From Eledone cirrhosa (Eukaryota), in the NCBI GenBank assembly GCA_964016885.1, contig OZ024742.1, positions 191,952,001 through 192,016,000 on the forward strand: DNA of 64,000 nt. The letters are read 5' to 3'. The notes under the pieces were generated by a model that was given only the letters and a program-made list of their open reading frames with translations, had not been told where the DNA came from and did no database searches. Shown piece after piece: positions 17,405 through 63,942 of this stretch. Each line of letters begins with the position of its first letter. Positions within the stretch are counted from its first letter, which is position 1. The position numbers and the translations under genes are program-made.

Positions 17405-20400
17405 TAACAGCGATTCTTTGCTGAAACTTTAATCTGTTACTAAAAAAGTCAATATGTGAACGCAGAAGTAAATATTTCAAAAAACGTTGCAACCGAAGAA
17501 AGACAGGAAGACGATACTTTGGTTCGTTGAAACGTTCTCTGGCAAAGAACGGAAAAAAAACGAAGATAATACGTCATTATTATACACACATGTATATATA
17601 TTTTTTTATATATGTTTTACGTGTATTTGGTGTATACGTTCATATGTGTGCGGGTACAGGCGTTGCGTGGGTTTTTGTATGTGTGCGCATGTTTTTGGTT
17701 ACGTGCATACCCATGGCGGGTGTTTTCGCGTATGCATGTGTATGTACGTATATGGATGCGTGCATGTATATATTTAATTATTGTTGATTTCAATAACCTC
17801 TGTAATTTATTTAGATTATTCTTAGCTCTGAAGCCGAGAATCATTCGGTTTCCTGAATAGAATTTTAGTCTACGACTTCATTCATACCATAAACGTGGTT
17901 TTGTCTTTGCGTGTAATTGCTCTCAACGTTCCACATAATGAAGTATTATCTTCGTTTTTTTCCATTCATTGCCAGGGAACGTCTCCACGAACCACCTAAT
18001 TTGAATAGTAGTCTACGACTTCATTCATACCATAAACATGGTTTTGACTTTGCGTGTAATCGCTCTCACCGCTCCAAATAATGACGTATTATGTTCGTTT
18101 TTTTACGTTCTTGCCAGGGAACGTTTCCACGAACCAAAGTATAGTCTGCCTGTCTTCCTTCGGTTGCAACGTTTTGGAACTCATACGGTGTATGAAATAT
18201 CGGAATAGCAGCAATTCCTTCCAGCTGGACCTGAAGAATAGAATTCGCTCTATTAATGATTCTAATGCCGTGCATGTCCACTCCGACAAAACTGGCTATC
18301 TATATCAAGTGGAGCGCAGTACTTACCATCAACTGCTATATAATGCTGTAACTAAGGATTACCGTAAAACTAATCGGAGTGTTATTAATGAATGGGTTTA
18401 AAATCACCTCTGATCTCAACGTCATGGACCGGATGAAAATCTGGAACCTATTTCTCCCCACTTTACCCTGAAGGATCACAAATCCAATTTCCCGAACAAC
18501 CCCTCTCCTCAGCTTATTAACCCTACGAAGACCGATTTAGGTAGACTTAGTAAAAGATTTTAGATAGAATTATACCTGAAATTAGAAGCTTGGCCCCTCT
18601 TGCACTGTGGAATAATTCTTTCGCGGTGATTGATTGGTTCAACGGCATATGCAACAAGGAACATTGCCGTTTTATCCAATTCGACATCAATAATTACTAC
18701 TCCTCTTTCACTTTACCACTTCTTCTTAGAGCTATCAATTTCGCTAAAACGCTCACGGTAGTTAAGGATTTCGAAGTTGATGTCATGCTCAATACCCGTA
18801 AGTCGGTGATTAATATCGACGACTTTATTTGGATTTAAAAATCTAATTGTACACGATTCTGCGGAGGTTACTGATCTTATCGGCCTTTTCCTTCTTTTCT
18901 CTATCAACGTGGGCGGTGGTTTGTACCGTGATGACGATCTTTTAACCATGACAAAGTGCGGCCCACATGCTTGCGACAGGTTCAGAAAATAACTCACAGC
19001 CTTCTTTAATGGTTTCAACTATTCCATACAGGTTGAGGCCAACCTCTCGGTCGTTAGTTACCTCGACGTTACCCTCAATTTGTCGAATGGCTTGCACTAC
19101 CTGTATAGAAAGCCGAATGATACGTTTAATTGCATAAGCAAGCATTCTACCCATCTTGCCAGCATAACCAAGAACCTGGTAAGAAACGTTTCTTGAGGCT
19201 TTCCCGTCTATCTACAAACGAGCATATTTCCATCAACCATTCCACATATTACAATGAAGCTCTTGCTCGGAGTGGATTTGTCGATAAGGTAGCATATACC
19301 GAGTATGAGCATAGACCTAGGAAATATACATCTCGACGCATTATATGGTATAACCCACCATATAATATGGAGGTGGCCACAGCATTAGCTAAGATCTTTC
19401 TCTCCCTTATTATGAAGCATTTCCCCCAGTACATAAATATAAAATTTTTAAGAGAAATACCATTAAAATTTCTTACTCTACGACTCCTAACCTTGCACAT
19501 AACATCGCTGCTTCAAATTTAGCTAAATTACCTAGTCGTAGGAACACGTGCAACCCTGTAGCTAGTACTAACTGTAATTGTAGGAATCGACTTGACTGCC
19601 CTCTATCCGGGAAATGCTTCTCTAGTAACATTCTCTACAGAGTGTATTAATATACACACAAGTATATATATTTTTTTATATATGTTTTATGTGTATTTGG
19701 TGCATACGTTCGTATGTGTGCGGGTAGAGGCGATGCGTGAGTTTTTGTATGTGTGCGCGTGTTTTTGTGTACGTGCCTGTATTTGCATACCCATGGTGGT
19801 TGTTTACGCGTATGCATGTGTATGTACGTATATGGATGCGTGCATGTATATATTTAATTATTATTGATTTTAATAACATCTGTAATTTATTTACATTATA
19901 CTTAACTCTGAAGCTGAGAATCATTCGGTTTCCTAAATAGAATTTTAGTCTACGACTTCAGTTATACCATAAGCGTGGTTTTGTCTTTGCGTGTAATTGC
20001 TCTCAACGTTCCAGATAATGACGTATTATCTTCGTTTTTTTCGTTCATTGCCAGGAAACGTCTCCGCGAACCACCTAATAGAATATTAGTCTACGAATTC
20101 ATTTATACCATAAACGTGGTTTTGTCTTTGCGTGTAATTGTTTTCACCGCTCCAAATAATGACGTATTATGTTCGTTTGTTTACGTTCTTTGCCAGGGAA
20201 CGTTTCCACGAACCAAAGTATCGTCTGCCTGTCTTCCTTCGGTTGCAACGTTTTTCGAAAAATTTACTACTGCGTTCACAGATTGATTTTTAGTTTCAGA
20301 AGATGCCATTAAGGGTGAAAGCAGCGATTCTTTGCTTAAACTTTAATATGTTATTTTAATAAATATTTGCTCTACGGTTCTGATATATAGTTATCCTTAT

Positions 20401-23860: not shown

Positions 23861-23934
<74 letters not shown>

Positions 23935-23941
<7 letters not shown>

Positions 23942-24423
23942 ATACTTTGGGAGGGTCATGTTGTCAATAAGAAACACACGCACCAGTTGCTTTCATTCCA
24001 ATTTATTATAAATTAAATTTATAAATTTGAGAATTTATAAATTTCCGGTTGGATGGTTCCATAACCGGACGGTTATTCATATATTGTCAAAGTTGTTTCG
24101 TCACACATTCTGTGACCTCTTCAGTGACTTGGGATTATTTTCTTTGTTTTGTGCCTCTCCTTTGTCCCCAAGTCACTGAAGAGGTCACAGAATGTGTGAC
24201 GAAAGAACTTTGACAATAGATGAACAACCGTCCGGTTAGGGAACCATCCCACCGGAAATTTATAAATTCTTAAATTTATAAATGTTATTTATAATAAATT
24301 GGAGTGAAAGCAACTGGTGCGTGTGTTTGTTATTGGCAACATGACACTCCCAAAGCATAACAATATAGGTTTCAACACACGTTTTCAGATACAGAATCTT
24401 GCTAAACAAATTCAGAAACGAAA
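23935..24423 (+). mobile_element. Family D fold-back element (about 200-bp inverted repeat + tail)
   Basis: 23935-24140 is the reverse complement of about 24165-24365; a shorter copy with the same ends lies at 61775-61965; TA-flanked. Confidence 0.9.
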
Positions 24424-25694: not shown

Positions 25695-26982
25695 GGTGCT
25701 GGAGACGTTATTTTAAGTTCATTGACAACAACTATGCTATTAAAGATATTAATAATAAAACAATGTATTCTCCCATGACCGGTGAAGCTACCACTACCAC
25801 ATCCTACTACCAACAATTTCAGCAACAACAAATACAACGGCATCTAAATGTTCGAATAAAATGTAAAATAGATTTGTTTTATCGTTTTTTGTATGTGTTT
25901 TAATAACATACAAAATAAATAATTGCTATTGTTAGCTCTTCTTTCCCTTCCCTTAAACTGTTGGCCTTGTGTCTAAATCAGAAACCATTATCTGCGGTGG
26001 ATTGGCAGTATCGGTAGAGGCTCCGACGCCATGCTTTGACGCATAGAGTTACGGCCCTTGCCAGTCTGAGTTCAAATCCTTCCAAGGTTAACTTTACCTT
26101 TCATCCTTACGGAGTCGATAAAATAAAGTACCAGTAATACACTGGTAATTGCTGGCCTTGTGCCAAAAGTAGAAACAATTATTAGCTCTTTACACATCGT
26201 CGAAGGGTGGCTTTTTTGTATTTGCCTCTTCCTTGTTGCTAACAGTAAAGTTTATTAATTGTTTCTACTTTCGGCACAAGGCCAGCAACTAACCAGTGCA
26301 TTACTGGTACTTTATTTTATCGACCCCGTAAGGATGAAAGGCAAAGTCAACCTCGGCGGGATTTGAACTCAGATCGTAAAGGGACGTAACTATGCTGGAA
26401 AGCATGGTGTTTGACCCTCCACCGATACTGCCAATCCAGTTTATTAATGTCCCTCAATCGTATTTTATCTTTCCATTGCCGTTCAGCTTCATAAGCTGGA
26501 AGTGACAACCATGTGTTAAACAATTTGAAAATAATCCTCCGTAAAAAGAAAAGGAAATGAAAAAAATAAAAACAAATACTTCTTTAAAATCACGCATTAA
26601 AAAATAAAGTAAGCAGACGATAATGAAATATTTAGAACGCTGGTGATGGCAGGCAAGAAAAATTGAAAGAAAGATGTTTAATTTCCAGTCTGGATTAATG
26701 GTTAATATAAAATAAATCATGTAAAAAGCTTTTTTTTTTTCCAGGGCATTGAATCGTCAGGAAAAAAATGAAGATTCCACATAGTTTCCTTCAATCATCT
26801 TTGAAATTCCCCAAGAGTAAACTTTACTTTTCGTCTTGTCAAGATCGATGAAATAAGTAATTGTAAATAATATACTGGGGAATTTTCAATAGATTAATTT
26901 CCTGCTCTGCAAAGTCGTGTATTTTTTATATACGCGCAAACATATATACATACATACACACTCATATACATGTGTATATATA

Positions 26983-29957: not shown

Positions 29958-31830
29958 TAGAAGGATCTGCACAATAGTTTCAGATAAATACACATGCTAC
30001 ACACGACTAAAAGAATTGAAGAACACACCAATCAGCAGAAACTACCCACCATCCCTAATTAACAATGGATTCCAACAAGCCCTAAAGGTCAACATCCAGG
30101 AACTCAGACACGCCAAACCCAGGAAAGAATAGCAACAGAAAACTCTACCATACATCTCCACACACAACCCCTCAGCAATGAGGCATTCGACACCATCCTC
30201 TAGAACAGTGCTTCTCAAACTATCTGATGTGGCAGACCGGCATTTTTTTTTTCAATGTGCCACGTACCGCTAATATTTCGTAGTAATATTAATTTATACC
30301 GGAAACGATATATATAATGAATATAATAATAGTTGACCATTTTTTTTATCTTCTATTTATTTTGTAAACAAATAACACAATATCAAAACATAAAAAAGCA
30401 ATAAAAAAATTCCTCAAATGATTCCTTAGCATGGCCTGTACACTGGCTGCGTACCGGTAGCTGATGGCTCGCGTACCGGCACCGGTCCACGGACCACCAC
30501 ATTGAGTAGCACTGCTCTAGAACATTCTTTACTAAAAAGTGACCCAAGAATGAACAAAATCCTCCAAACACACAACATCATAAAGAGCAAAAGCCAACCT
30601 AAATCCATAAAAAAACATCCTCACACAAGCCAAAATCCAACGAACCCTCACAATGAACCCTACAGTAAATAAAATGCGGAAGGCCCAACTGTGGTATATA
30701 TGCATACATCTAATAGAATGTTCAACATTCCATTTTAAACAAGGACAACATTTCACAGTTCAATACAACTTTACATGTGCATCTGAAAATCTAATCTATG
30801 TTTTGACCTGCTCAGGTTGTCGAGAACACTACATAGGACAGACAAAAAACAGCCTCCGACAACGTATGACCGTCCATAGATCACAAATCAAAATACACGA
30901 ATACAGAAAGATTGCTTTTAGTGAACATATCGCCTATTATACAGCTAACCAACATCCAAACTTTAAAATTTTCCCCATTTACAAATTCATAGACAACGCT
31001 TTTTCATCCATCGTACCAATAAGGAAACGCACTTAATTAACAAATTCCAGCCTCTACTTAATGGACTAAACTTCGGACTAAACTAAAACTGGAACGAATA
31101 ATGAACCAAAGCCCAATTCCTATGTTATCTAAAGAGTTACCCTCCTTACACCCTACCTAATCTCTTTTCTTATATAAATGAATTGCCCCCTCTCATTTCT
31201 CTCTCCCCTACCTGACCACCCTGAAACACCTCCCCCTGCATATTAACTCTCTAAAAAGGGAAATAATATCAAACCCCAGACTACCATTTGCCTCCATTAT
31301 GGACCAACCAGGCGCTCTTGCCATAATAACACATTTTTGAACTGCTTATCCCCAAGAACTATGCCTGTAAATAATATTATTCTTTCTTTCCCATTACCTT
31401 AACATGTTCCACATCACCCCCTTTTTTTTCTTTTTTCTTTTTACTTCAAAAACCTTGTTTCTAAATAATATTAAACTTTCATTCCCATTTCCTTAACATG
31501 TTCAACATCACATTATTTTCTCTCCAACATTTTATACCAATACAAATTCCCCCATTTGATAATGCATAAAATGCTGACACCGGTAATAGACAATTATTAA
31601 ATAAATAAATAAATAAATAAATAAATGCCATTGTTAAGTAATACATAAATTAACTAACACTTCCCACGAAGTAATACTTCACACAAAGTAAAATATTTTG
31701 TTTTAAACATTTTCTAACCCAGAAAAAAGAGAAAAAAATAAAAGGAAAAAATATATTTTTCTTCCTTATAATCCCTATTTTCATATATATATGTATTCAA
31801 ACTCGTGTGCTCCTTCTCCACATTTTATAA
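29958..31830 (+). mobile_element. 5'-truncated Penelope-like (Neptune-type) element: thumb + GIY-YIG endonuclease + 3' UTR
   Basis: RRICTIVS..RLKELK..RNYP thumb; NLIYVLTCSGCREHYIGQTKNSLRQRMTVHRSQI GIY-YIG (30653-31036); decayed hammerhead near 31555-31592; interrupted by a hAT MITE. Confidence 0.88.
30206..30514. mobile_element. hAT-Charlie/Buster-type MITE
   Basis: TIRs CAGTGCTTCTCAA / TTGAGTAGCACTG and an exact 8-bp TSD CTCTAGAA (30198-30205, 30515-30522), matching the NTCTAGAN Charlie target. Confidence 0.95.
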
Positions 31831-31906: not shown

Positions 31907-32125
31907 AATGGAAGTACAGCATATTGGAAGTTCGAGCCGCAGCTAAGCCGACGAATGCATTCAGAAGTACAGCCAAGCACTCGACAAGGTAAAAAACCTC
32001 AGAGTAATGACATACAGTTTAAAGGGCTTTGCAAATTGAAGATAACGACCGGTAATTCAGCCGCGGGGTCCGTAGCAACGAAAGAACTGACTCGCGAGAA
32101 AAAATACATACATATATACATACAT

Positions 32126-32157
<32 letters not shown>

Positions 32158-32173
32158 TTATATTTATTATTAT

Positions 32174-32224
<51 letters not shown>

Positions 32225-32225
<1 letters not shown>

Positions 32226-32615
32226 GAGAGCAATCCCAAAAGTAAGGTCTCCTTCCGATATTGCAACCTTTCCGTGAAAATCCTGTGGATGGTGCTTCGG
32301 GAAACCTCAGGAACCAAAATGCAGAGAACATCCAGAGTGATTCGCCGATCTTTACGCATGTCTTCTCGGAAGGAGACCTTACTTTTGGGATTGCCCTCTA
32401 TATAATAACTGCGCGAAATTCGCACTTGGCGATAGCGTTCAACGGGAGCTCCATTCTCAACGGCTGCCCAGCCAAGATTGAACATCCCAACGAAGCGCGC
32501 GCATGCTTGTTTGGGAGTGAAGGAACCACCAATCACAACAGTGTTGCCAACAGCCGTACGAACAGTTTCTCTGCGTCGCCATCGCTTTGGAGACCTTACT
32601 TTTGGGATTACCCGC

Positions 32616-32616
<1 letters not shown>
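32225..32616 (-). mobile_element. Internally deleted mariner with three TIR copies
   Basis: TIR CGAGRGCAATCCCAAAAGTAAGGTCTCC at 32225-32252 and inverted at 32372-32399 and 32589-32616, TA-flanked; transposase pieces MELPLNAIAKCEFRAVI and DRRITLD..VSRSTIHRIF.ERLQYRK (HTH). Confidence 0.88.
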
Positions 32617-32652
<36 letters not shown>

Positions 32653-33035
32653 AATGTATACAATGTATTTGGACCAAATCTGTGTCAGTTCTCTTTCAAA
32701 GATAGCAGAATAGCACAACGAGTACAACAACATATATAAAACTCAGGCACATGCAAACAATCCTCGCCTCTTTAAAAACCTAACTGTAGGTTACGTAGCA
32801 GCCCAGTTTTGTTGCATATGTTTCAATCCTGTTCCACCGTTTCTTTCGCAAGTGTTTTGTTGCATAACGCAGAAGACCGTTTTTCGCGTTATAGGTTTTT
32901 TGTCCACGTTATGCTCATTTTTGTAGTTGTGAATGAAAATGCACGCAAAATCGGTCCACATACATTAAATATTTTAATCTACGAATCTATCTCTCTTCCC
33001 TTCTCTTTTTCCATCTTTATCTTTCTTTCTTTCTT

Positions 33036-34750: not shown

Positions 34751-35622
34751 CTTGAATCTCAGTCATTGATGTTGGTTAACTGGAAAGTCCGTTGGATTGA
34801 ATATCAAGCCACTACCTGCAGCCTCAGATATTCAGGACGTATCGGAGGGTTCTTGCTGTTCCAAGCAAGCATGCCTTTTGAAGCGTTCCAAAAAGCGTGA
34901 AGGGGCCGATTTTCTTTAACCATCCCTGGAAACTTTTGGAGATAGTCCCCAGTGCGCCTATGACAATCGGGATCACTTTGACTTCATGGCAGTTCCAAAT
35001 CCTTTTCACCTCCCACTTTAGGTCCTGGTATCGGTTAATTTTCTCCCTCTCCTTCTCTTGCACTCTCGTGTCGAACGGGCAGGCCACATCCACAATCAGA
35101 CACGATCTTTTTTCTTTGTCCACAACCACCAGGTCAGGTCTATTGTGTTCCAGTTTTTTGTCCGTCTGTATCCTAAAATCCCACAGCACCTTCACCTGAT
35201 TGTTCTCCATCACCGCCTCTGGCCTATGCTCATACCATTTCTCAGAATGTGGTAAATTGTTTACTTTGCACAGGTGCCAGTGGATCACCCTGCCCATCAC
35301 ATCGTGTCTCCAGCCCTTATAGTGGGTCTGGGCTAGGTGTTTACACTCGGACACAATGTGAGCCACAGTCTCCTCTCTCTCTCTCCACAGATCCTGCACA
35401 GTGGGCTAGCCTCCTCCTTGTAAATATGGTGCTTCAACCACTTCGTTTTGAGGGCCTGCTCCTGCGCAGCCATTAGCATTCCTTCTGTAGCCTTTTTGAG
35501 GTCTCCTCTTCTCAACCAGTTCCATGTCTGTGGATCTCTAAATTCAGTTTTCTCAAAGAAGGTACTATGAAGGGATTTTCCCTTAAGGCTGCTCTTCCTC
35601 CTTGATGTTATTTCCTCCTTGG
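34750..35622 (-). mobile_element. 5'-truncated second copy of the same R4/Dong LINE (RLE domain + 3' UTR)
   Basis: Closely similar to 35683-36556 with scattered substitutions; flanked on both sides by (TTA)n tracts (34686-34749, 35625-35662). Confidence 0.93.
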
Positions 35623-35624
35623 AC

Positions 35625-35665
<41 letters not shown>

Positions 35666-35682
35666 ATTATTGTTGTTATTAC

Positions 35683-38600
35683 TCTTTGAGTCTCAGTCAT
35701 TGCTGTTAGTTAACTGGAAAGTTTGTTGAAATGAATATTAAGCCACTACCTGCAGTCTCAGATATTCAGGACGTATCGGAGGGTTCTTGCTGTTCCCAGC
35801 AAGCATGCCTTTTGAAGCGTTCCAAAAAGCGTGAAATGGCCAATTTTCTTTAACCATCCCTGGAAACTTTTTGAGATAGTCCCTAGTGCGCCTATGACAA
35901 TCGGGATCACTTTGACTTCATGGCAGTTCCAAATCCTTTTTACCTCCCACTTTAAGTCCTGGTATCGGTTAATTTTCTCCCTCTCCTTCTCTTGCACTCT
36001 CGTGTCGAATGGGCAGGCCACGTCCACAATCAGGCACGATCTTTTTACTTTGTCCAAAACCACCAGGTCAGGTCTATTTTGTTCCAGTTTATTGTCCGTC
36101 TGTATCCTAAAATCCCACAGCACCTTCACCTGATCGTTTTCTATCACCGCCTCTGGCGTATGCTCATACCACTTCTTAGAATGTGGTAAATTGTTTACTT
36201 TGCACAGGTGCCAGTAGATCACCCTGCCCATCACATCATGTCTCCAGCCCTTATAGTGAGTCTGGGCTAGGTGTTTACACTCGGATACAATGTGAGCCAC
36301 AGTCTCCTCTCTCTCTCTCCACAGATCCTGCACAGTGGGCTAGCCTCCTCCTTGTAAATGTGGTGTTTCAACCACTTCGTTTTGAGGGACTGCTCCTGCG
36401 CAGCCATTAACATTCCTTCTGTAGCCTTTTTAAGGTCTCCTCTTTTCAACCAGTTCCATGTCTGTGGATCTCTAAATTCAGTTCTCTCAAAGAAGGTACT
36501 ATGAAGGGATTATTCCTGAAGGCTGCTCTTTCTCCTTGATGTTATTTCCTCCTTGAACATCCCCTGGCCTATTGTCCCCTCCTTCAGTACAGTTCTGAGC
36601 ATTGGCTCCGTACTATCAGTCACGTATTTGTGTAGGTTGTTTTTCTCCATCTGAACACAGTCCTCTATGCTGATAAGACCACTTCCACCCTCAGATCTCC
36701 TTAAGTAGAGTCTATCGATATCACTCCTCTTGTGTAACATGTTGTAGATAGTCAATAGCTTCCTAGTCTTCCTATCCATTTTTTTTGTTCAGCAACATTC
36801 CATCTCAGAATTCGCGCACTGTACCTAATAATAGACACAGCTCGGGAATTTACTGCACTTATGGCATTCCTACTGTTCAGATGTGACTTTAATACGCTCC
36901 TTAGTCTCCGAAGGTATTCAGTTCTTATCAATTCCTTCATTTTTTTGTTCTTGATGTCATCAGCCTCCAGAACGCCCAAATACTTGTATCCCTCCTCAGA
37001 GTCAATTTCCTTTATCATCTCACCTGTTGTTATCTGGATTCCGTTACTTCTGCTCAACTTACTCCTCCTCATCACAATGACTCCACACTTACTAATACCA
37101 AATTGCATACATATATCATTGCTGAAAATACGGACAGTGTCAACAAGCACATCCAACTCCTTCTCACTCTTCCCGAAGAGCTTAAGATCGTCCATGAAGA
37201 GGAGGTGATTGCTGGTAAGCCCTCCCTTTCCCAACCTGTATCCTGCCCTCACTTTTCGCAGTACACTGGTCAGGGGCATCAGGGCAACGACAAACAACAG
37301 AGGGGACAGACAATCTCCCTGGAAGATACCTCTCTTGATCTTCACGCTTCCCAAGGATTCTCCAGTTGATGTTAACTCTGTTTCCCAGGACTTCATACTT
37401 TTGCCCAACAACTGTCTGATGTTATCTGCCACCTTGAAGATCTCCAGGCTTTTGGTGATCCAAGAATGTGGCACCTTTTTGTAGTCTATCCATCCCATGG
37501 CAAGACCTGTGTGTCTCCTCTTGCAATTCCTCATTACCATCTTATCAATAAGTAACTGGTCCTTTGTACCACGTGACTTCTTTCGGCATTCTTTCTGTTC
37601 GTCCGGTAACAAGTTGTTTGTGTGGAGGTGATGGTAGATTTCCTCAGAAATAATGATTGTCAACAGTTTCCACATTACGGACAGATATGTGATAGGTCTA
37701 TAGTTGGTAACATCATTACCCTTGATTCGGTCTTTCATTATCAGAACTGTGGTACCTTTTGTCAACCACTCTGGTACCTCACCTGACATCAAGCAGTCAT
37801 TGAACATGGTTGTCAGTTTCGGGTGGAGGGATGTTATGTTTTTAATCCAATACCCCTGCACACCATCTGGGCCAGGTGATTTCCAGTTGGTTAGATTTGT
37901 GGCCTGCCCCTTAAGAGTTTCAACTGTGATACTCAAATCAGTTTGTTGGTGTGCCTGTTCACTAATCTCCTTCTGTACTGTCTCAATCCACACTGCCTGG
38001 TCATTATGTTTAACATCCTGCTCCCATATTCCTCTCCAGAATGTTTTAGTTTGTTCCGCCTCAGAGATCATGTCGTTGCCTCTTTCTTTCCCTTCAAGCT
38101 GTCCAAACAGCATCTTCTGGTTGTTGTCGAACATGCGGTTCTGTCTATATTTACTGACTCTGTTCTCGTATCGCCTGATTTTTGCACTCTTTGCTACAAT
38201 GCGTTGATTCAGTTCCTCTATGATAATATTTAGCTTTTTCCTCCTAGTTTTGTACTTTATTTTCAGTCTATTTTTAGTATCTATGTTTTTTAGTGTCCCA
38301 TTCAGTAGGGACTCAAGCTTTCCAATGTCATTTCTCATTTCCCTGATTTGACCACTCAGTCGTTTCTTCCACTGTTGTTTCCTCTCGCTTTTATACCAAG
38401 TAGTTTCCTCACCGTATTTGCTGTTGCTTTGAGGATATTGTTGCACTGGTGAAGGCTCCTCGCCTCAAGGTATGGGATGACTTTGTTTACCTTAGCTGTT
38501 GTTACTTTTAACTTTTTCCTGTCTACAAATCTTAGGTTCATAAGTCTCCCACTATCATTGTTCAATTCATCTACCACTAAGTTTAGGATGTCAACCAAAT

Positions 38601-39197
38601 CTTGTCCTAGCCCGTCAGCATTCATCTCCTCAGTGGCCGTATCTCTGTTCCAGGTATTATTTATCTCAGCATTCAGATCATTGTCTGCTTCGGGTGGTTC
38701 CTCCGTTCTCTCGACCTCTTCACCTCCATTTCCCACTGGCTCGTTTGCCTGGCTTACTCCACCCTCCATCTCCAAGCTAATCTCTCTGCTCAGTTCCTCC
38801 AGTTCCAGCTCGCTTATCCACCCATTAGTTCTTATTACCCGAGCCTGCCCGGCCAGTTTTTGTTCATCTAATTTAAATGGACCAATCTCGTTCCAGATGT
38901 TATGCATCCTTTTCCTATAGCCCTTCTCCTTGGGGTTACTGTTCAGGTAACATTGCATAACAGTTCTATTCAATTATTTCGTCCAGTTGGTTCTGGTCCC
39001 TTTCCTTCTTCTTCCTCTGACACAAGCAGTATTTGGTTGACAGCCAGGTCCCTGCTGTTGAGCCAGGGAGCACCTGTTGGGTGGGAGTCTGTCACATGAC
39101 ATTCTAGTCTCCTTTTCACCGTTATTCGAACTGTTTAGGTTCGACATTTAAACACTCTTATCGAGGATTGGCGAATGTATGGTTACATAACCACCTG
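35683..39197 (-). mobile_element. Near full-length, inactivated R4/Dong-clade non-LTR retrotransposon (RT + CCHC + restriction-like endonuclease)
   Basis: N-terminal GYRKRM..IW..EQKL..QAR motif (38356-38973); RT with KSPGPDG, NYRPI, RGIFQGDCLSPLLF, FMDDLK, YKYLG (36752-38446); CRICG..ETVAHIVSEC knuckle and RHD/PDLVV/K..Y RLE motifs (35758-36449); short 3' UTR abutting (TAA)n. Frameshifts, an in-frame stop near 36510 and loss of the usual AYDx residues in WIDYKK-VPH. Confidence 0.93.
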
Positions 39198-42823: not shown

Positions 42824-43749
42824 TACCACAGACATTGTAGCATTATTGTAATTATCATGTTGGATCTGAGTAGCGTAGTATGTAACATGTTGTAAATAAC
42901 TGGCAATTCTAAAGATATATGACATTTTCATGTAATACTTCGGTAGATTATGTATGACACAGTGTCTGACTTGGTGCAAATAGCTACGTAATCTCAAAAT
43001 ACTCGACGTCCTAATATAATTCTCGTGTAGGCTGTGTGTAACACAGTTTGTGACGTTGTGTTACTAGCTGAGTAATTAACAGACACTTAAAGTAATTTTA
43101 AGAAGATATTGTGTGCTATAGCATGAAGCTTAGATATTTATACTGCTTATTTAATCACAGAGGGATGTGCAATGATCATGATGCTTCGTTTCTCAAAGTC
43201 TTGGCAAGTAATGTGTTGAAGGGGTAGAGGACATTCTCAAACCTGAAACCTCACCTGGATTTGCAACAGTGCAAAAGATCACTACGGGCATTCAAGTGTC
43301 GGGTGATGAGCTAAATTGGTTGACAGATTAGTTCTACCACTCAAATTCAAAACGCAAAGGGCCAGGAACTAACACGGCACGTTATTTCTTCCAACGCTCT
43401 ACTAATCCCAACAATCTACTTGCTAAATTAGAGATTTATTTTATCATTTACGATTTCCTTTTGAATTACTGGTATAATTCTTTCGTTCTCAAATTCACAT
43501 ATAACACTTTGGTCCTCTTAAGGCGATAGTAGATGGCGCTTCCCTATACATATGTTATTGGAACGCAATAATAAAGAAAGCCATCAAATTGAAATACAAC
43601 TCGTCTTATAATATTTGTGACTACAGATAAAAAATATGCTGTTGTAGAAGTCAGCTCCCACCAACACATCAAACCAACCATAATACTAAAATAAACCGCA
43701 ACAATAAAAACCTTCACATATAACAAGTCGAGTAAATTCCACACCAAAT

Positions 43750-44990
43750 TTGACTAACTCCCTTGATATAATATTCACGAATGGTTGTAACTGTAGAAAC
43801 AAAAGAAATTGCCCATCAAAGGGAAATTGTCTTATTAATAACATAGTCTATAAATGTAAAATTAGCACTAAGGACTCTACTTATTCATATATAGGAGCTA
43901 CGTCTAACCAATTTAAAGTAAGATTTAATACCCACAAACATAGTTTTTAAAATGTCGCATTAGCTAATACAACATCCTTGGCTGAAACAATTAATAATTC
44001 TAGAAAAAAGAATATCGATTACAACCTGACCTGGAGTATGCTCAAAAGGGCCACCCCCTTATCAAAATAACAGATATGAGTGTAGATTATGCTCCAAGGA
44101 AGTTTTTGAAATAATGAAATCTAACGATATCCTATTAAATAAGCGACAAGAATTAATTATATCTTGCAATCATAGAATTAGAAGAACCTTCAAATATTAT
44201 AAACCTAATTAATATACACCTTACACTTATATTTTACATATTATTATAATTAGTTTTTTTAATTTAGTTAACCTATAATTAGTACTTTACTACAGAGAAC
44301 TTCATAATTTTATTTCCCTCTTACAGCTCTCTTTTCCTAAAATTAATACCTAAAAGTATACATATAAATTAATCTAATTTCCTGTTATGAATCTAGACTC
44401 CTTATAGTTTATATAAGATTGGTATTTCTCACTACTACCCTTATCCCAAAATTTTATTTTCTTCGTTTTTAACAAAATTCTTTAATAACATCTAATTCTT
44501 ATTTATCACATCTATATGAATTAATATAAATGTATCCCTATAAGTATACCAATCAATTAATTTAATTTCTTGTTACAGATCTAGATTCCTTGTGGTTTAA
44601 ATAAGATTGGTATTTCTCACTAATACCCTTACCCTAAAATTTTACTTTCCTTCGTTTTTAACATTATGCTTTAATAACATCAAATTATCGTGTACCTATC
44701 ACCGACTTGACCTCTTTTCATCCCCAAAGTATTCTTTTCATTCAAAGTATTCTTTCTATTCAAAACATAAGTCTGCACTCCTCTACCCATAAATTAAATT
44801 TCTACTACTACTATTATATCAACTTGACCTCTTACTACTTTTCTATTGGTCAATTCAAAATCTGTTCCCAAACAGATCTATTATATTAAATCTTAGTTGG
44901 TTTTTTTCAATAAACAAATTTTATCATTTCTGAAGACAGCATATATATGTGAAGGTATGTATATTTCCTCTGATAGTTTGTAATATTTTT
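43750..44990 (+). mobile_element. Penelope-like 3' fragment (Cys linker + GIY-YIG relic + 3' UTR)
   Basis: CNCRNKRNCPSKGNCLINNIVYKC...YIGATSNQFKVRFNTHKHSF; internal direct repeat about 44365-44500 / 44555-44682; decayed CTGAAGA hammerhead core near 44930. Confidence 0.85.
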
Positions 44991-46714: not shown

Positions 46715-47689
46715 GAGTTCAAATGCCGCCGAGGTTAACTTTGCCTTTCATACTTATGGGGTCAATAAAATAATATACCAGTAATGAACTGGGTCGATTT
46801 CTTCGACTTTCCCCTCCCTCAAAATTGTTGACATTGAGTCTAAATCAAAATATTAAATAGTAAAGCAATGTTGTGGAGTGGATCAGTTGATAGAGGTTCA
46901 GACAATATTCTTTTGCACAGTTTGTTCAAATCCTGCTGATATCAACTCTGCCTTCCATCCTTCTGGGATCCATAAAATAAAGTACCGAACAAGTACTAGG
47001 GTATATATAATCGACTTTACCGTCACCCCCAATTGCTGATCTTCTGCCTGCAATAGATATCATAGTTACGTCCCTTTACGATCTGAGTTCAAATCCCGCC
47101 GAGGTTAACTTTGCCTTTCATCCTTACGGGGTCGATAAAATAAAGTACCAGTAATGTACTGCGTAATTGCTGGCCTTGTGCCAAAAGTAGAAACAATTAT
47201 TAATGAGTAAGAAGGGCGGTGGATTGGCAGTATCTGTAGAGTCGGACACCATGCTTTGCAGCATGGAGTTCTGGTCCGTTACGGTCTGAGTTTAAATCCT
47301 GCCGAGGTCAACTTTGCGTTTCATGCTTACGGGGTCGATAAAATAAAGCACCAGTAACGTACTGGCGTCCATTTAATCGACTTTATCTACCCCAAAACTA
47401 CTGGCCTTGTGCCTATACTAGAAATCATTATAATAAAGTACGGTGGATTGGCAGTATCGGTAGAGGGTCGGACGCCATGCTTTCTAGCATAGTTACGTCC
47501 CTTTACAGTCTGAGTTCAAATCCCGCCGAGGTTAACTTTGCCTTTCATCCTTACGGGGTCGATAAAATAAAGTACCAGTAATGTACTGGATTATTGCTGG
47601 CTTTGTGCCTAAAGTAGAAATCATTATAATAAAGTACCAGTAATGTACTGGGTAATTGCTGGCCTTGTGCCTAAAATAGAAACAATTAT
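46715..47689 (+). repeat. Head-to-tail array of about six copies or fragments of the same SINE
   Basis: Units start near 46715, 46870, 47060, 47213, 47440 and 47630, with variable 5' truncation and divergence. Confidence 0.9.
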
Positions 47690-51247: not shown

Positions 51248-51412
51248 GAAGAGAATGGGCTGTGTAGTTGCTAGAAAAGGTATGCTTAAAAATAAGAATA
51301 AGAAGAAAGCAAGAACGCGAGAAGTTTTCCTCGTCAGTTGTCTGCTGGGGGTCACATCCGACGAGAAAACTTCTCCCGTTCTTGCTTTCTTCTTATTATT
51401 ATTATATATATC

Positions 51413-51603
51413 AGGGTGGTGGATTGGCAGTATCGGTAGAGGGTCGGACGCCATGCTTTCCAGCATAGTTACGTCCCTTTACGATCTGAGTTCAAATCCC
51501 GCCGAGGTTGACTTTGCCTTTCATCCTTACGGGGTCGATAAAATAAAGTACCAGTAATGCACTGGTTAATTGCTTGCCTTGTGCCTAACGTAGAAACAAT
51601 TAT
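51413..51603 (+). mobile_element. tRNA-derived SINE (MetaSINE-like central domain), full copy
   Basis: A-box TGGCAGTATCGG, B-box GTTCAAATCC, conserved GCCTTTCATCCTTACGGGGTCGATAAAATAAAGTACC. Other copies: 6590-6712(-), 25994-26180(+), 26255-26438(-), 34327-34545(+), 50370-50520(+), 60758-60996 (two tandem). Confidence 0.9.
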
Positions 51604-51678
51604 TTTATATATATATATATATATATGAAAATGTTCAAGACCCCGACGGCAGAGCTCAAGCCGTTTTGACGGCTATTT

Positions 51679-51795
51679 CTCTCCATCTCAATCTTTTCGC
51701 GAACAGGTCGATCTTTGCGTGAGCATCCGTAGGTAAAGTTTTCTAGGTGGAACTGGGATGTTCTTGGTGGAGAAGTTGATAGTGTGTTTTCGCAT
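51679..51795 (-). pseudogene. N-terminus of a Penelope ORF attached to a family-C repeat
   Basis: ATG at 51795: MRKHTINFSTKNIPVPPRKLYLRMLTQ, then (frameshift) IDLFAKRLRWR. This resembles the YSxKNIPxP...KRMRWK start of PLE ORFs. Confidence 0.75.
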
Positions 51796-53080
51796 GATAG
51801 GTATTATGAAGAAACTGGAGCTGGGTGGAAAAGTCGGGATATGGCGTGGTAGGGTCGGAAAGTGTTCTACTACGGCGGTAGGAGCTAGATAACGAAGGAT
51901 GTGTGGTAAGGAACTAGATGGACCATAACGCTCCAGCGTACACAATACTTAGAGTCGTCGAAACGGCTTGAGCTCTGCCCTCGGGGTCTTGAACATTTCC
52001 TATTATCCACTCTACTACCCTAAGTATTGAATACTCTGATGCGTTATGGTCCACCTGGTTCCTTACCACACACACATATATATATATACATATATATATA
52101 TAAAGGATAACAAAAAATCGTTATTGGTAATCCAATTATTAATATTATTATTGATGATGTAATTTGAATTTGTTACACATATATGTTTTGATCAGTTTCC
52201 GATGATCTAGTAGAGTTAACATCGTATTTAAAATTGAGTGGCACTGCTTTTAGTGTTCACCAATTTTTAGACAACTCTATCAGTGAAACAATTGTTAGAC
52301 TGCAAATAAATCCCCTTTTTTGTACTGTTGACCATGTTATTCTCCACTTTCTCAACTATATATATGTATATGGGGTGTGAGAAAGCGAGTGAAAGAGAAC
52401 GAACGATATTATGTCTGATGGGATATTGAGAATATCGTTTCATCTATCTGTTTGTGCATGTGTGTATGTAAGTGTGCTTGAGCAATATATATATTCCTAA
52501 GCTGCCATCAATTTCCGCTAGGTTTCCGTTTCGCTTCTCAAACTTATGGGCATATTCCTCTTAAATGAGAATCCTTTCACTTGCTTATTTCAATACCAAC
52601 TAGCGACATATATAGCAATTAAGTGTAACCACAAATTCTAATACATGCTTTCACTAGTTGACAAAGACAAATTCTAAACCCCTCACTCCCATGATCCAAC
52701 GGAACATTCAGGCTGTAAAAGCTGCAGGAATAGAGAATCCTGCACCAGAACTAGGCTGGTTCTTTATTTATCAACCATGAAAGGAAGGGAGCCAAAGAGG
52801 ACCTCGGTGGGATTTGAACGCACAATCCAGAAACATGTAAAAAATATTCAACATTCTCATATATCTGTATAATAATGTATAATCTAAACCCAAGGCCGGC
52901 AATCTGCAGGAGCTAAAGGTTAACTTTACTTCAGTACCCTTCGATGTGGTAACAGCAGATGGACAATTTGCTCAGCACAGGTTAGAATCCAAGATCTCAT
53001 GATTGTGAATCAAATTTCCTAACTATCCAGTCGTATATATCTGTAAATCCATTAAATGTCGTGGGGCGAAAAATAATGGA

Positions 53081-63269: not shown

Positions 63270-63837
63270 ATATATAGGAAAAGAGTCAGGACCCCGACGG
63301 CTGAGCTCCGCCGTCGGGGTCCTGGCTCTTTTCCTATTACCCACTCTACTTACCTAACTATTGAGTACTCTGGTGCGTTATGGTTGACCTACCTGTTCTG
63401 TTCTGTTATATATATATATATATATATAAGGAAGTGTGGTAAGGAAGCAGATGGGCTATAACGCACGAGAGTACTCAATGCTTAGGATAGTAGAGTGGGT
63501 AATAGGAAAATGTTTAACCCCGACGACAGAGCTCAAACCGTTTCGACGGTTATTTCTGGACATAACCGTCGAAATGGCTTGAGCTCTGCCGTCGGGGTTA
63601 AACATTTACCTATATATATATATATATATATATATATAGCGAGGGAAAAGTGGTAAGGAACCAGGTGGACCATAACGCACCAAAGTACTCAATACTTAGG
63701 GTAGTAGAGTGGGTAATAGGAGTAAGTAAGACCTCGACGGCTGAGCTCAAGCCGTTTCGACGGCTAACTCTGTACTGAATTAGTACAGAATTAGCCATCG
63801 AAACGGCTTGAGCTCAGCCGTCGGGGTCTTACTTACT

Positions 63838-63942
<105 letters not shown>

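Follow-up and report, generated by a model that had tools for sequence, protein, structure and literature searches.

We analysed a 64,000-nucleotide stretch of the Eledone cirrhosa genome (contig OZ024742.1; hereafter the window) and found that one of its TA repeats carries a Penelope-like element (PLE) of the Hydra clade, inserted once and now dead. The insertion has three segments, which likely arose when the element's reverse transcriptase (RT) primed at two positions, both fixed and close to the start of the RNA, ran off the RNA 5′ end and jumped to the 3′ end of a short fragment of that RNA. We regard the identity as almost certain and the full mechanism as probable. Directly supported are the identity of the element, its intact copies, the paired ends at +56 and +139, a boundary at -12..+2, the landing of the junctions and a U3-A8 hammerhead fold. 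Taken alone, the window locus is an ordinary dead fragment, one of hundreds of copies from a known clade; the interest is in a family-wide pattern of apparent starts within the ribozyme and in junction fossils.

Anatomy and identity of the element

Positions in the element are numbered from the A of AGAAATAG, which is +1 of family C, an abundant repeat that the preliminary description had taken for a non-coding mini-element. On the minus strand, family C runs from 51955 to 51890, where it ends in …CCTTCGTTA. As that description had stated, the sequence continues past this usual end, through 94 nt (51889-51796; about 95 in the original estimate), to ATG 51795 and MRKHTINFSTKNIPVPPRKLYLRMLTQ. 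The ORF start found there had been called PLE-like, and over its first 25 aa it indeed shares 84% identity (E 1e-13) with an intact ORF of the genome. The frame is then shifted by the loss of one nucleotide near 51716, after which IDLFAKRLRWR is read as far as 51680. Here the sequence returns to family C, again in agreement with the earlier claim, with a 1-nt overlap; it stops at ~51626 in (TA)n.

On the plus strand, 51956-52069 is a separate inverted family C arm (inverted repeats I1 and I2), so that the insertion consists of three segments in the order (TA/CA)n, inverted arm +123..+10, direct +67..+342, direct +1..+56, (TA)n (Table 1; locus L252). The inverted arm finishes in (CA)n/(TA)n, not at the usual +139 end. 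Because it holds +57..+66, it was likely primed separately, from the other target strand. The second bulged hairpin has one mutated stem base in the window copy. In the last segment we recognized the 3′ strand of stem II, GAAA (here AAAA), stem III and the 3′ strand of stem I of a hammerhead, with a predicted cut after GTC at 51645. At the DNA level, the fragment is closer to a copy of an older subfamily (89% identity) than to the young subfamily (83%).

Table 1. Features of the insertion (window positions)
Feature	Positions	Strand	Remarks
(TA)n target, right flank	51606..51625	.	
Family C +1 to +56, hammerhead 3′ half	51626..51680	-	Finishes at the +56 putative priming site
Putative jump junction, ORF to family C +1	51679..51681	-	1-nt overlap at 51680
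ORF N-terminus (MRKH…LRWR)	51680..51795	-	RWK-type motif of Hydra PLEs; 1-nt deletion near 51716
Element 5′ UTR	51796..51889	-	Second bulged hairpin 51884-51864, after the +139 putative priming site
Family C 3′ part (+67 to +139), pLTR 'tail'	51890..51955	-	Head-to-head with the inverted arm
Inverted outer arm, family C ~+10 to +123/128	51956..52069	+	Holds +57..+66, missing from the minus-strand segments
(CA)n/(TA)n target, left flank	52070..52100	.	

When the 201-nt part of the locus outside family C was searched against the 3.0-Gb genome, 805 candidate matches came up; 40 were scored, and all of these but the window locus were 86-92% identical. The preliminary description had anticipated that a genome search would recover a full-length element, and this was the case: 10 matches, when extended, gave pLTR-ORF-pLTR elements, and intact 717-aa copies exist. 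An RT query of the genome yielded 105 scored matches, many of them within open frames near 784 codons, and 20 fetched stretches held 22 ORFs of >700 aa, all but one of which (21/22) differ mutually by 0-9 of 717 residues. Head-to-tail arrays with a period of 3,528-3,542 nt (3.53-kb tandem units) were also present; those at L186-L189 and L191-L192 (e.g. G000:C2:51274500-51290000) comprise three or four near-identical full-length units. Two near-identical truncated copies, L008 and L014, lie 1.2 Mb apart on C1 and are probably a segmental duplication.

Penelope-like elements are the closest relatives of telomerase, and the expected RT was recognized by its TERT-like predicted fold. The model of the 717-aa protein on a 117-row alignment reached a pLDDT of 93, with TERT 3du5 as the top Foldseek match (E 1.6e-8); the single-sequence fold of the ORF had a pLDDT of 32. 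The protein has at least 2,049 homologues at ~40% identity. As in EN+ PLEs, there is a single ORF with a telomerase-like RT (YRDD), and partial pLTR-ORF-pLTR tandems, inverted 5′ copies and a one-sided tail are present. The anticipated GIY-YIG endonuclease is assigned by motif to the C-terminus (VIY593…YIG608, R617, H621, E676, N689), and these residues are conserved in 116 homologues. The Pfam GIY-YIG model remained below threshold in the 717-aa ORF and passed only in homologue P0001; neither the ORF nor its profile found a match when Pfam and PDB were searched by sequence.

The element almost certainly belongs to the Hydra clade, a placement made by eye from motifs of published families. It carries R37 W38 R39 (RWK type, with K in 70% of homologues), D117 K118 T119 (DKT in place of DKG), the CxCx5C linker, CxxC and CxH around E and N with no CCHH, and a preference for insertion into (TA)n. 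Where Hydra-clade pLTRs have a canonical hammerhead, our element has a predicted type I fold with a U3-A8 core and a long stem II. The Naiad clade was rejected: its endonuclease is N-terminal (here C-terminal) and its motif is DKA (here DKT).

According to the available text of Craig et al. (2021, PMC8557442), Hydra-clade elements have the same single ORF with RW(K/R), DKT and the CxCx5C linker and the same C-terminal GIY-YIG with CxxC and CxH but without CCHH. As in our element, they insert into (TA)n, have a hammerhead in the pLTR (in ours a predicted one) and form partial tandems in which the 5′ copy is inverted and the tail lies on one side. The unit here is 3.1-3.5 kb long, whereas theirs is mostly <3 kb. 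In File S2 of that study, all 26 Hydra hammerhead rows show a CTGA core and a short stem II; in the hammerhead described here the core is TTGAnAA, stem/loop II extends over ~55 nt and a 9-nt loop closes the 5-bp stem III. Since the N-terminus and ribozyme of Hydra-1_Obim (PMC8557442) differ by eye from those of our element, we consider it another family.

The window contains other mobile elements as well. Decayed pieces of other Hydra-type PLE families lie at 18060-19650 (+) and 43708-43950 (+), with DKT, FDI, CxCx5C and YIG in their translations. The GIY-YIG endonuclease fragment at 30430-31036 (+) has internal cysteines and belongs to another type of PLE (Pfam GIY-YIG E 6e-5); a relative occurs in L021 (2335-2742). 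Another head-to-head palindrome (51290-51400), with CTGACGAG and GAAAAC motifs, is probably the end of a different hammerhead-bearing PLE. An abundant SINE-like repeat of ~180 nt adjoins the (TA)n flank of the locus (51420-51602; also 26256-26438, 47444-47626 and others, 91-96% alike). A non-LTR retrotransposon at 34824-38973 (-), presumably R4/Dong-like, has a Pfam RVT_1 match (E 9e-17), a C-terminal CCHC/restriction-like region and a duplicated 3′ end (34824-35405 and 35758-36339). The fragment at 32057-32695, which carries a short duplication and has no Pfam match, resembles, as we take it, the N-terminus of a Tc1/mariner transposase. At 23933-24367, two arms of 201 nt, separated by 33 nt and 94% complementary, form an inverted repeat.

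Paired outer ends and the nature of family C

Family C ends on its 3′ side at +56 or at +139, each time at a TA merging with the target. In a targeted set anchored on a long arm, 55/57 classifiable head-to-head pairs combined the two ends (+139/+56) and 2/57 were +139/+139, with 7 more pairs having an unclassified end. Random stretches together with the window gave +139/+56 in 10/10 classifiable pairs, and 8 more had an unclassified end. The same ends were found in all 12 readable ORF-junction loci (12/12, of 15) and in two full-length insertions with both ends in view. Both sites lie 4-6 nt before a bulged hairpin (L186, L022; the first hairpin is degraded in L021).

These paired ends match what has been reported in vitro for the Anolis carolinensis Poseidon element PAc (Frangieh et al. 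2024, PMC11167929, in its available text), namely two internal RT start sites that define the tail, together with cutting and extension of both strands at an AT-rich target. The PAc sites are 30-40 nt apart and within the ORF; in our element 83 nt separate the two putative sites, both of which lie in the 5′ UTR, at a TA ahead of a bulged hairpin.

A variable linker is common to both arms in 21/31 pairs, compared with 2.8 (max 8) after shuffling, and both outer arms of the window locus carry a linker found in 3/271 other copies. This indicates that the arms of a pair come from the same donor. Fold-back synthesis was rejected for six loci (the window locus, L247, L249, L254, L255 and L256), where part of the sequence in the inverted arm does not occur in the segments next to it.

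The preliminary description had presented the window locus as a 'Rosetta' copy. It is not unique: the genome contains 404 exact read-through junctions, and its ORF-to-family-C junction recurs at 14 other loci. Exact matches to the +139-(TA)n end and to the inner 24-mer number 33,167 and 27,752, respectively, the three counts coming from different patterns. In 80 evenly spaced 10-kb stretches we found 28 pLTR fragments, distributed over 18 of them, which scales to ~100,000 fragments genome-wide. At 63271-63845 of the window, three family C insertions are nested side by side within one (TA)n tract.

Family C most likely represents the first ~140 nt of the element RNA, inserted as head-to-head arms, and not a separate mini-element. 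The proposed tie to an autonomous partner is real as a link, but family C looks like the element's own abortive 5′-end cDNA. Were it instead a non-autonomous mini-element of SINE or retrozyme type, one that arose from the pLTR, propagates itself and is moved in trans, one could understand its roughly 80-fold excess over read-through copies (~1% of family C), the failure of any random fragment (0/28) to continue into the 5′ UTR, and the absence of two common arm linkers, CCTACTCG and CTTACTTAC, from 19 ORF-linked (read-through) copies; pLTR-derived retrozymes have also been described (bioRxiv 10.64898/2026.07.22.740005). We nevertheless consider this very unlikely. Family C copies are devoid of the ribozyme 5′ half and of the upstream TATA-like box, their palindrome centres vary between copies, most linker types occur in ORF-linked copies too, full-length elements are bounded by the same +56/+139 ends, and tandem monomers with whole hammerheads were not seen. 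A non-LTR retrozyme was rejected on similar observations, as the copies begin inside the ribozyme and occur as single head-to-head pairs, not as whole-hammerhead tandem monomers.

The predicted pLTR hammerhead and the inner boundary

It had been expected that the missing ribozyme half, CTGAnGA followed by GACGGCTA, would be found upstream. The half does exist, with a different core, TTGAnAA (U3-A8), which precedes GTTCGGCTA or GATCGGCTA. Whole pLTRs carry ACCCC-TTGAnAA-G(T/A/C)TCGGCTA upstream of +1 (2,328 exact matches, control 0, with a pattern that misses the young subfamily). The minimum-energy fold is a type I hammerhead with a three-way junction, in which stem I is ACCCC/GGGGU, stem II closes a long loop and stem III has 5-6 bp; the predicted cut falls after GUC at +36.

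Core position 7 is variable (all four bases), and 93% of the cells are paired in 35 distinct rows. In the same 35 hammerheads there were no compensatory pair changes and covariation was not above shuffles; the fold energy was likewise no better than that of shuffles (z -0.04). Rfam reported no hammerhead either in the window or in an intact pLTR, the motif escaping its models. By eye, 16 of the first 100 listed cores begin with C, 15 of them giving a C3-A8 mismatch. The subfamily represented by L123, L134, L135, L140 and L172 has the core CTGAGAA, which is either a C3-A8 mismatch or a register shift without position 7. An intron in the long ribozyme arm was rejected, as no spliced ribozyme was found (0/48 hammerheads shortened). 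So was a splice acceptor at the 5′ boundary of the copies (the boundaries include AG).

The same replacement of C3-G8 by U3-A8 in a type I pLTR hammerhead is known from the Schistosoma Cercyon PLEs (Cervera and de la Pena 2014, PMC4209133). Their hammerheads are described in the available text as minimal, with no real helix III, whereas ours has a stable helix III and a long helix II.

Family C begins inside this hammerhead and carries only its 3′ half. Among 78 copies chosen by the inner 24-mer, the 5′ boundary was at -12..+2 in 44, further downstream in 25 and upstream in 9 (in 3 of the latter the alignment had run on into the inverted arm). Per base, stops are 16 times as frequent at -12..+2 as in the downstream stretch. 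Over the whole genome, exact matches with a start at -5 after non-T number 14,275 and those with a start at -4 after non-A number 9,296, compared with 2,328 for the upstream hammerhead half, although the patterns differ and the last one misses the young subfamily. The boundary is located inside loop II, in the sequence TTAGTC (TCAGTA in one subfamily), and 29-32 nt upstream of it there is a TATA-like octamer, TATTTAAA, TATTTATT or TATTCATW (27 rows). We take TTAGTC and the octamer to resemble initiator and TATA elements, which is weak evidence in AT-rich DNA. A cap-derived G did not stand out clearly: by eye, the first 100 listed -5 starts follow G in ~42 cases, C in 52 and A in 6, many of the C being microhomology. 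Some junctions reach -8/-9 (TTTAG), so the start would be heterogeneous or U-tailed.

These observations suggest that transcription starts at the boundary, inside hammerhead loop II. In D. virilis Penelope, the transcript also starts inside the upstream pLTR, and a partial tandem is likewise needed for a full unit (Schostak et al. 2008, PMC2377424, in its available text). The promoter of that element is internal and TATA-less, with a DPE and an intron, whereas here we propose a TATA-like box and see no splicing in 48 hammerheads; the D. virilis promoter counts against the TATA reading. In PAc, it is the start codon that lies in the ribozyme (PMC11167929), where we place the transcription start.

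The main rival to an RNA 5′ end at this position, with the same element and priming sites, is an RT stall: the template would be uncut read-through RNA, the -5 boundary a stall in loop II, and switches would follow the stall. Unprocessed RNA is the dominant template of Anolis Poseidon, the only in vitro PLE system (PMC11167929, as far as its available text goes), the boundary is spread across ~14 nt and the cap-G signal is not clean. On the other hand, a stall would fall in a loop, once stem II is passed, and would not account for the TATA-like spacing or for TTAGTC/TCAGTA at the boundary. Moreover, the middle segments of 6/15 junction loci (L248, L250, L253, L257, L258, L259) begin at -5..+2 too, and L296 and L016 behave in the same way at +37, as true RNA ends would. 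We therefore regard a stall as unlikely and keep the RNA 5′ end as the preferred reading.

The predicted cut, with +37 as the first base, is where all three segments (inverted arm, direct and rejoined) begin at L296 and L016, one L016 junction being at +36/37, and where both arms begin at L173. In the 78-copy set, four 5′ ends are at +37/+38, by itself a weak excess. It is suggestive, at 3 loci in ~160 copies, that such starts look like copies of RNA whose 5′ end the hammerhead made. Palindrome trimming could explain L173; it does not explain the third segment of L296 and L016.

Junction fossils and the proposed cycle

An ORF anchor followed by a family C start within 30 nt was found at 15 loci including the window locus, with the ORF side near +340..+362. 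All 15 junctions land at -6..+2, most of them at -5/-4, even though -29 was allowed, and the same anchor with the landing motif at +58 gave 0 matches. This fits a jump from the RNA 5′ end onto the 3′ end of another RNA and is in line with the earlier suggestion that template switching is recorded here. Some junctions carry short untemplated A or T runs. Five of the 15 loci are 98-100% identical to the young subfamily, which indicates that the process is recent.

A later origin of the junction, through a deletion in the DNA or the insertion of another family C copy into the ORF of the resident element, would be compatible with the age of the window copy (89% to the nearest examined relative, frameshifted), and the 1-nt overlap says nothing either way. 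It is, however, highly improbable and largely refuted by the 14 other loci of the same junction class (several at 98-100% to the young subfamily, all at -6..+2, control 0), by a junction without (TA)n and by the rare linker common to both outer arms.

We also read the hit chains of 40 evenly picked loci from the 404 read-through loci: 26 are full length, 8 are rejoined 5′ fragments and 6 are otherwise broken. The rejoined fragments end at +196..+606, and family C lands in the -5 zone in 6, ~20 nt upstream in one and at +37 in one. A precise acceptor hot spot at +350 was rejected, since this sample shows a broad bias. Raw, unnormalised counts of junction anchors were 15 near +340, 0 near +630 and 1 in the endonuclease. 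Our guess is that short 5′ fragments are the usual acceptors because a protein-bound 5′ region is protected from decay.

At L281 (G000:C1:27009249-27013349), a -5..+249 fragment is copied twice with the same junction and followed by -5..+139; repeated jumps onto one RNA end, a circular template and later duplication are the alternatives. Tandems and rejoined fragments in general could come from circular RNA, cut and re-ligated by the hammerhead and copied by rolling circle, as proposed in PMC4209133 (in its available text). The arrays of 3.53-kb units and the repeated fragment of L281 would agree with this. Circles closed at the cut site, however, cannot give stops and junctions at -5, and the untemplated runs at several junctions fit linear 3′ ends, which makes a circular template quite unlikely.

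Returning to linear templates, the cycle may run as follows. Transcription would start at the A of TTAGTC (about -5), in hammerhead loop II, under a TATA-like box 29-32 nt upstream in stem/loop II. The ribozyme copy at the RNA 5′ end would lack one half and so could not cut; the 3′ copy would be whole, and the RNA would end after +36. Both strands of the nicked (TA)n would prime at the U-A sites just ahead of the twin bulged hairpins (+56, +139), and family C would result where cDNAs halted by the RNA 5′ end were joined head-to-head. If the cDNA jumped to the 3′ end left by ribozyme cutting, where -5..+36 is repeated, a full-length copy would arise, with no scar. Further jumps could produce an upstream partial copy, with pLTR and promoter restored, or tandems; the window locus would be the product of a jump onto a short piece from the 5′ part of the same RNA, ending about +342.

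The most specific version of this scheme, which we put forward tentatively, is that the core promoter is built into hammerhead loop II, so that transcripts start with a disabled half-ribozyme and end at a cut whole one, and strong-stop cDNA jumps via the 41-nt repeat to the cut 3′ end. In LTR elements, strong-stop synthesis is primed near the RNA 5′ end and runs off, and the product is transferred to the 3′ end, which shares a short repeat; template jumping is known for the R2 RT. The proposed cycle would work in the same way as the LTR strong-stop, although the element is not an LTR element: the primer is nicked target DNA, not tRNA, there is no integrase or RNase H domain, and the jumps reach non-homologous ends too. 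In the open-access literature we found no strong-stop or jump model of pLTR formation and no start inside a hammerhead. The fixed template 5′ end and the jumps that we propose are not described for PAc in the available text of PMC11167929.

The mechanism of pLTR regeneration was not known to Schostak et al. (2008, PMC2377424), and it is stated as an open question, together with the role of the hammerhead in PLEs, in the available texts of PMC2377424, PMC8557442 and PMC11167929. A young family with base-exact candidate priming sites, a template 5′ boundary and junction fossils makes a concrete pLTR cycle testable. For annotation, about 100,000 apparent SINE-like palindromes would be reassigned to one retrotransposon. 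If the reading with a promoter in loop II and strong-stop transfer is true, these family C stubs would be failed strong-stop products, an LTR-like strand transfer would regenerate the pLTRs and tandems, and both the ribozyme and the pLTR would gain a mechanism.
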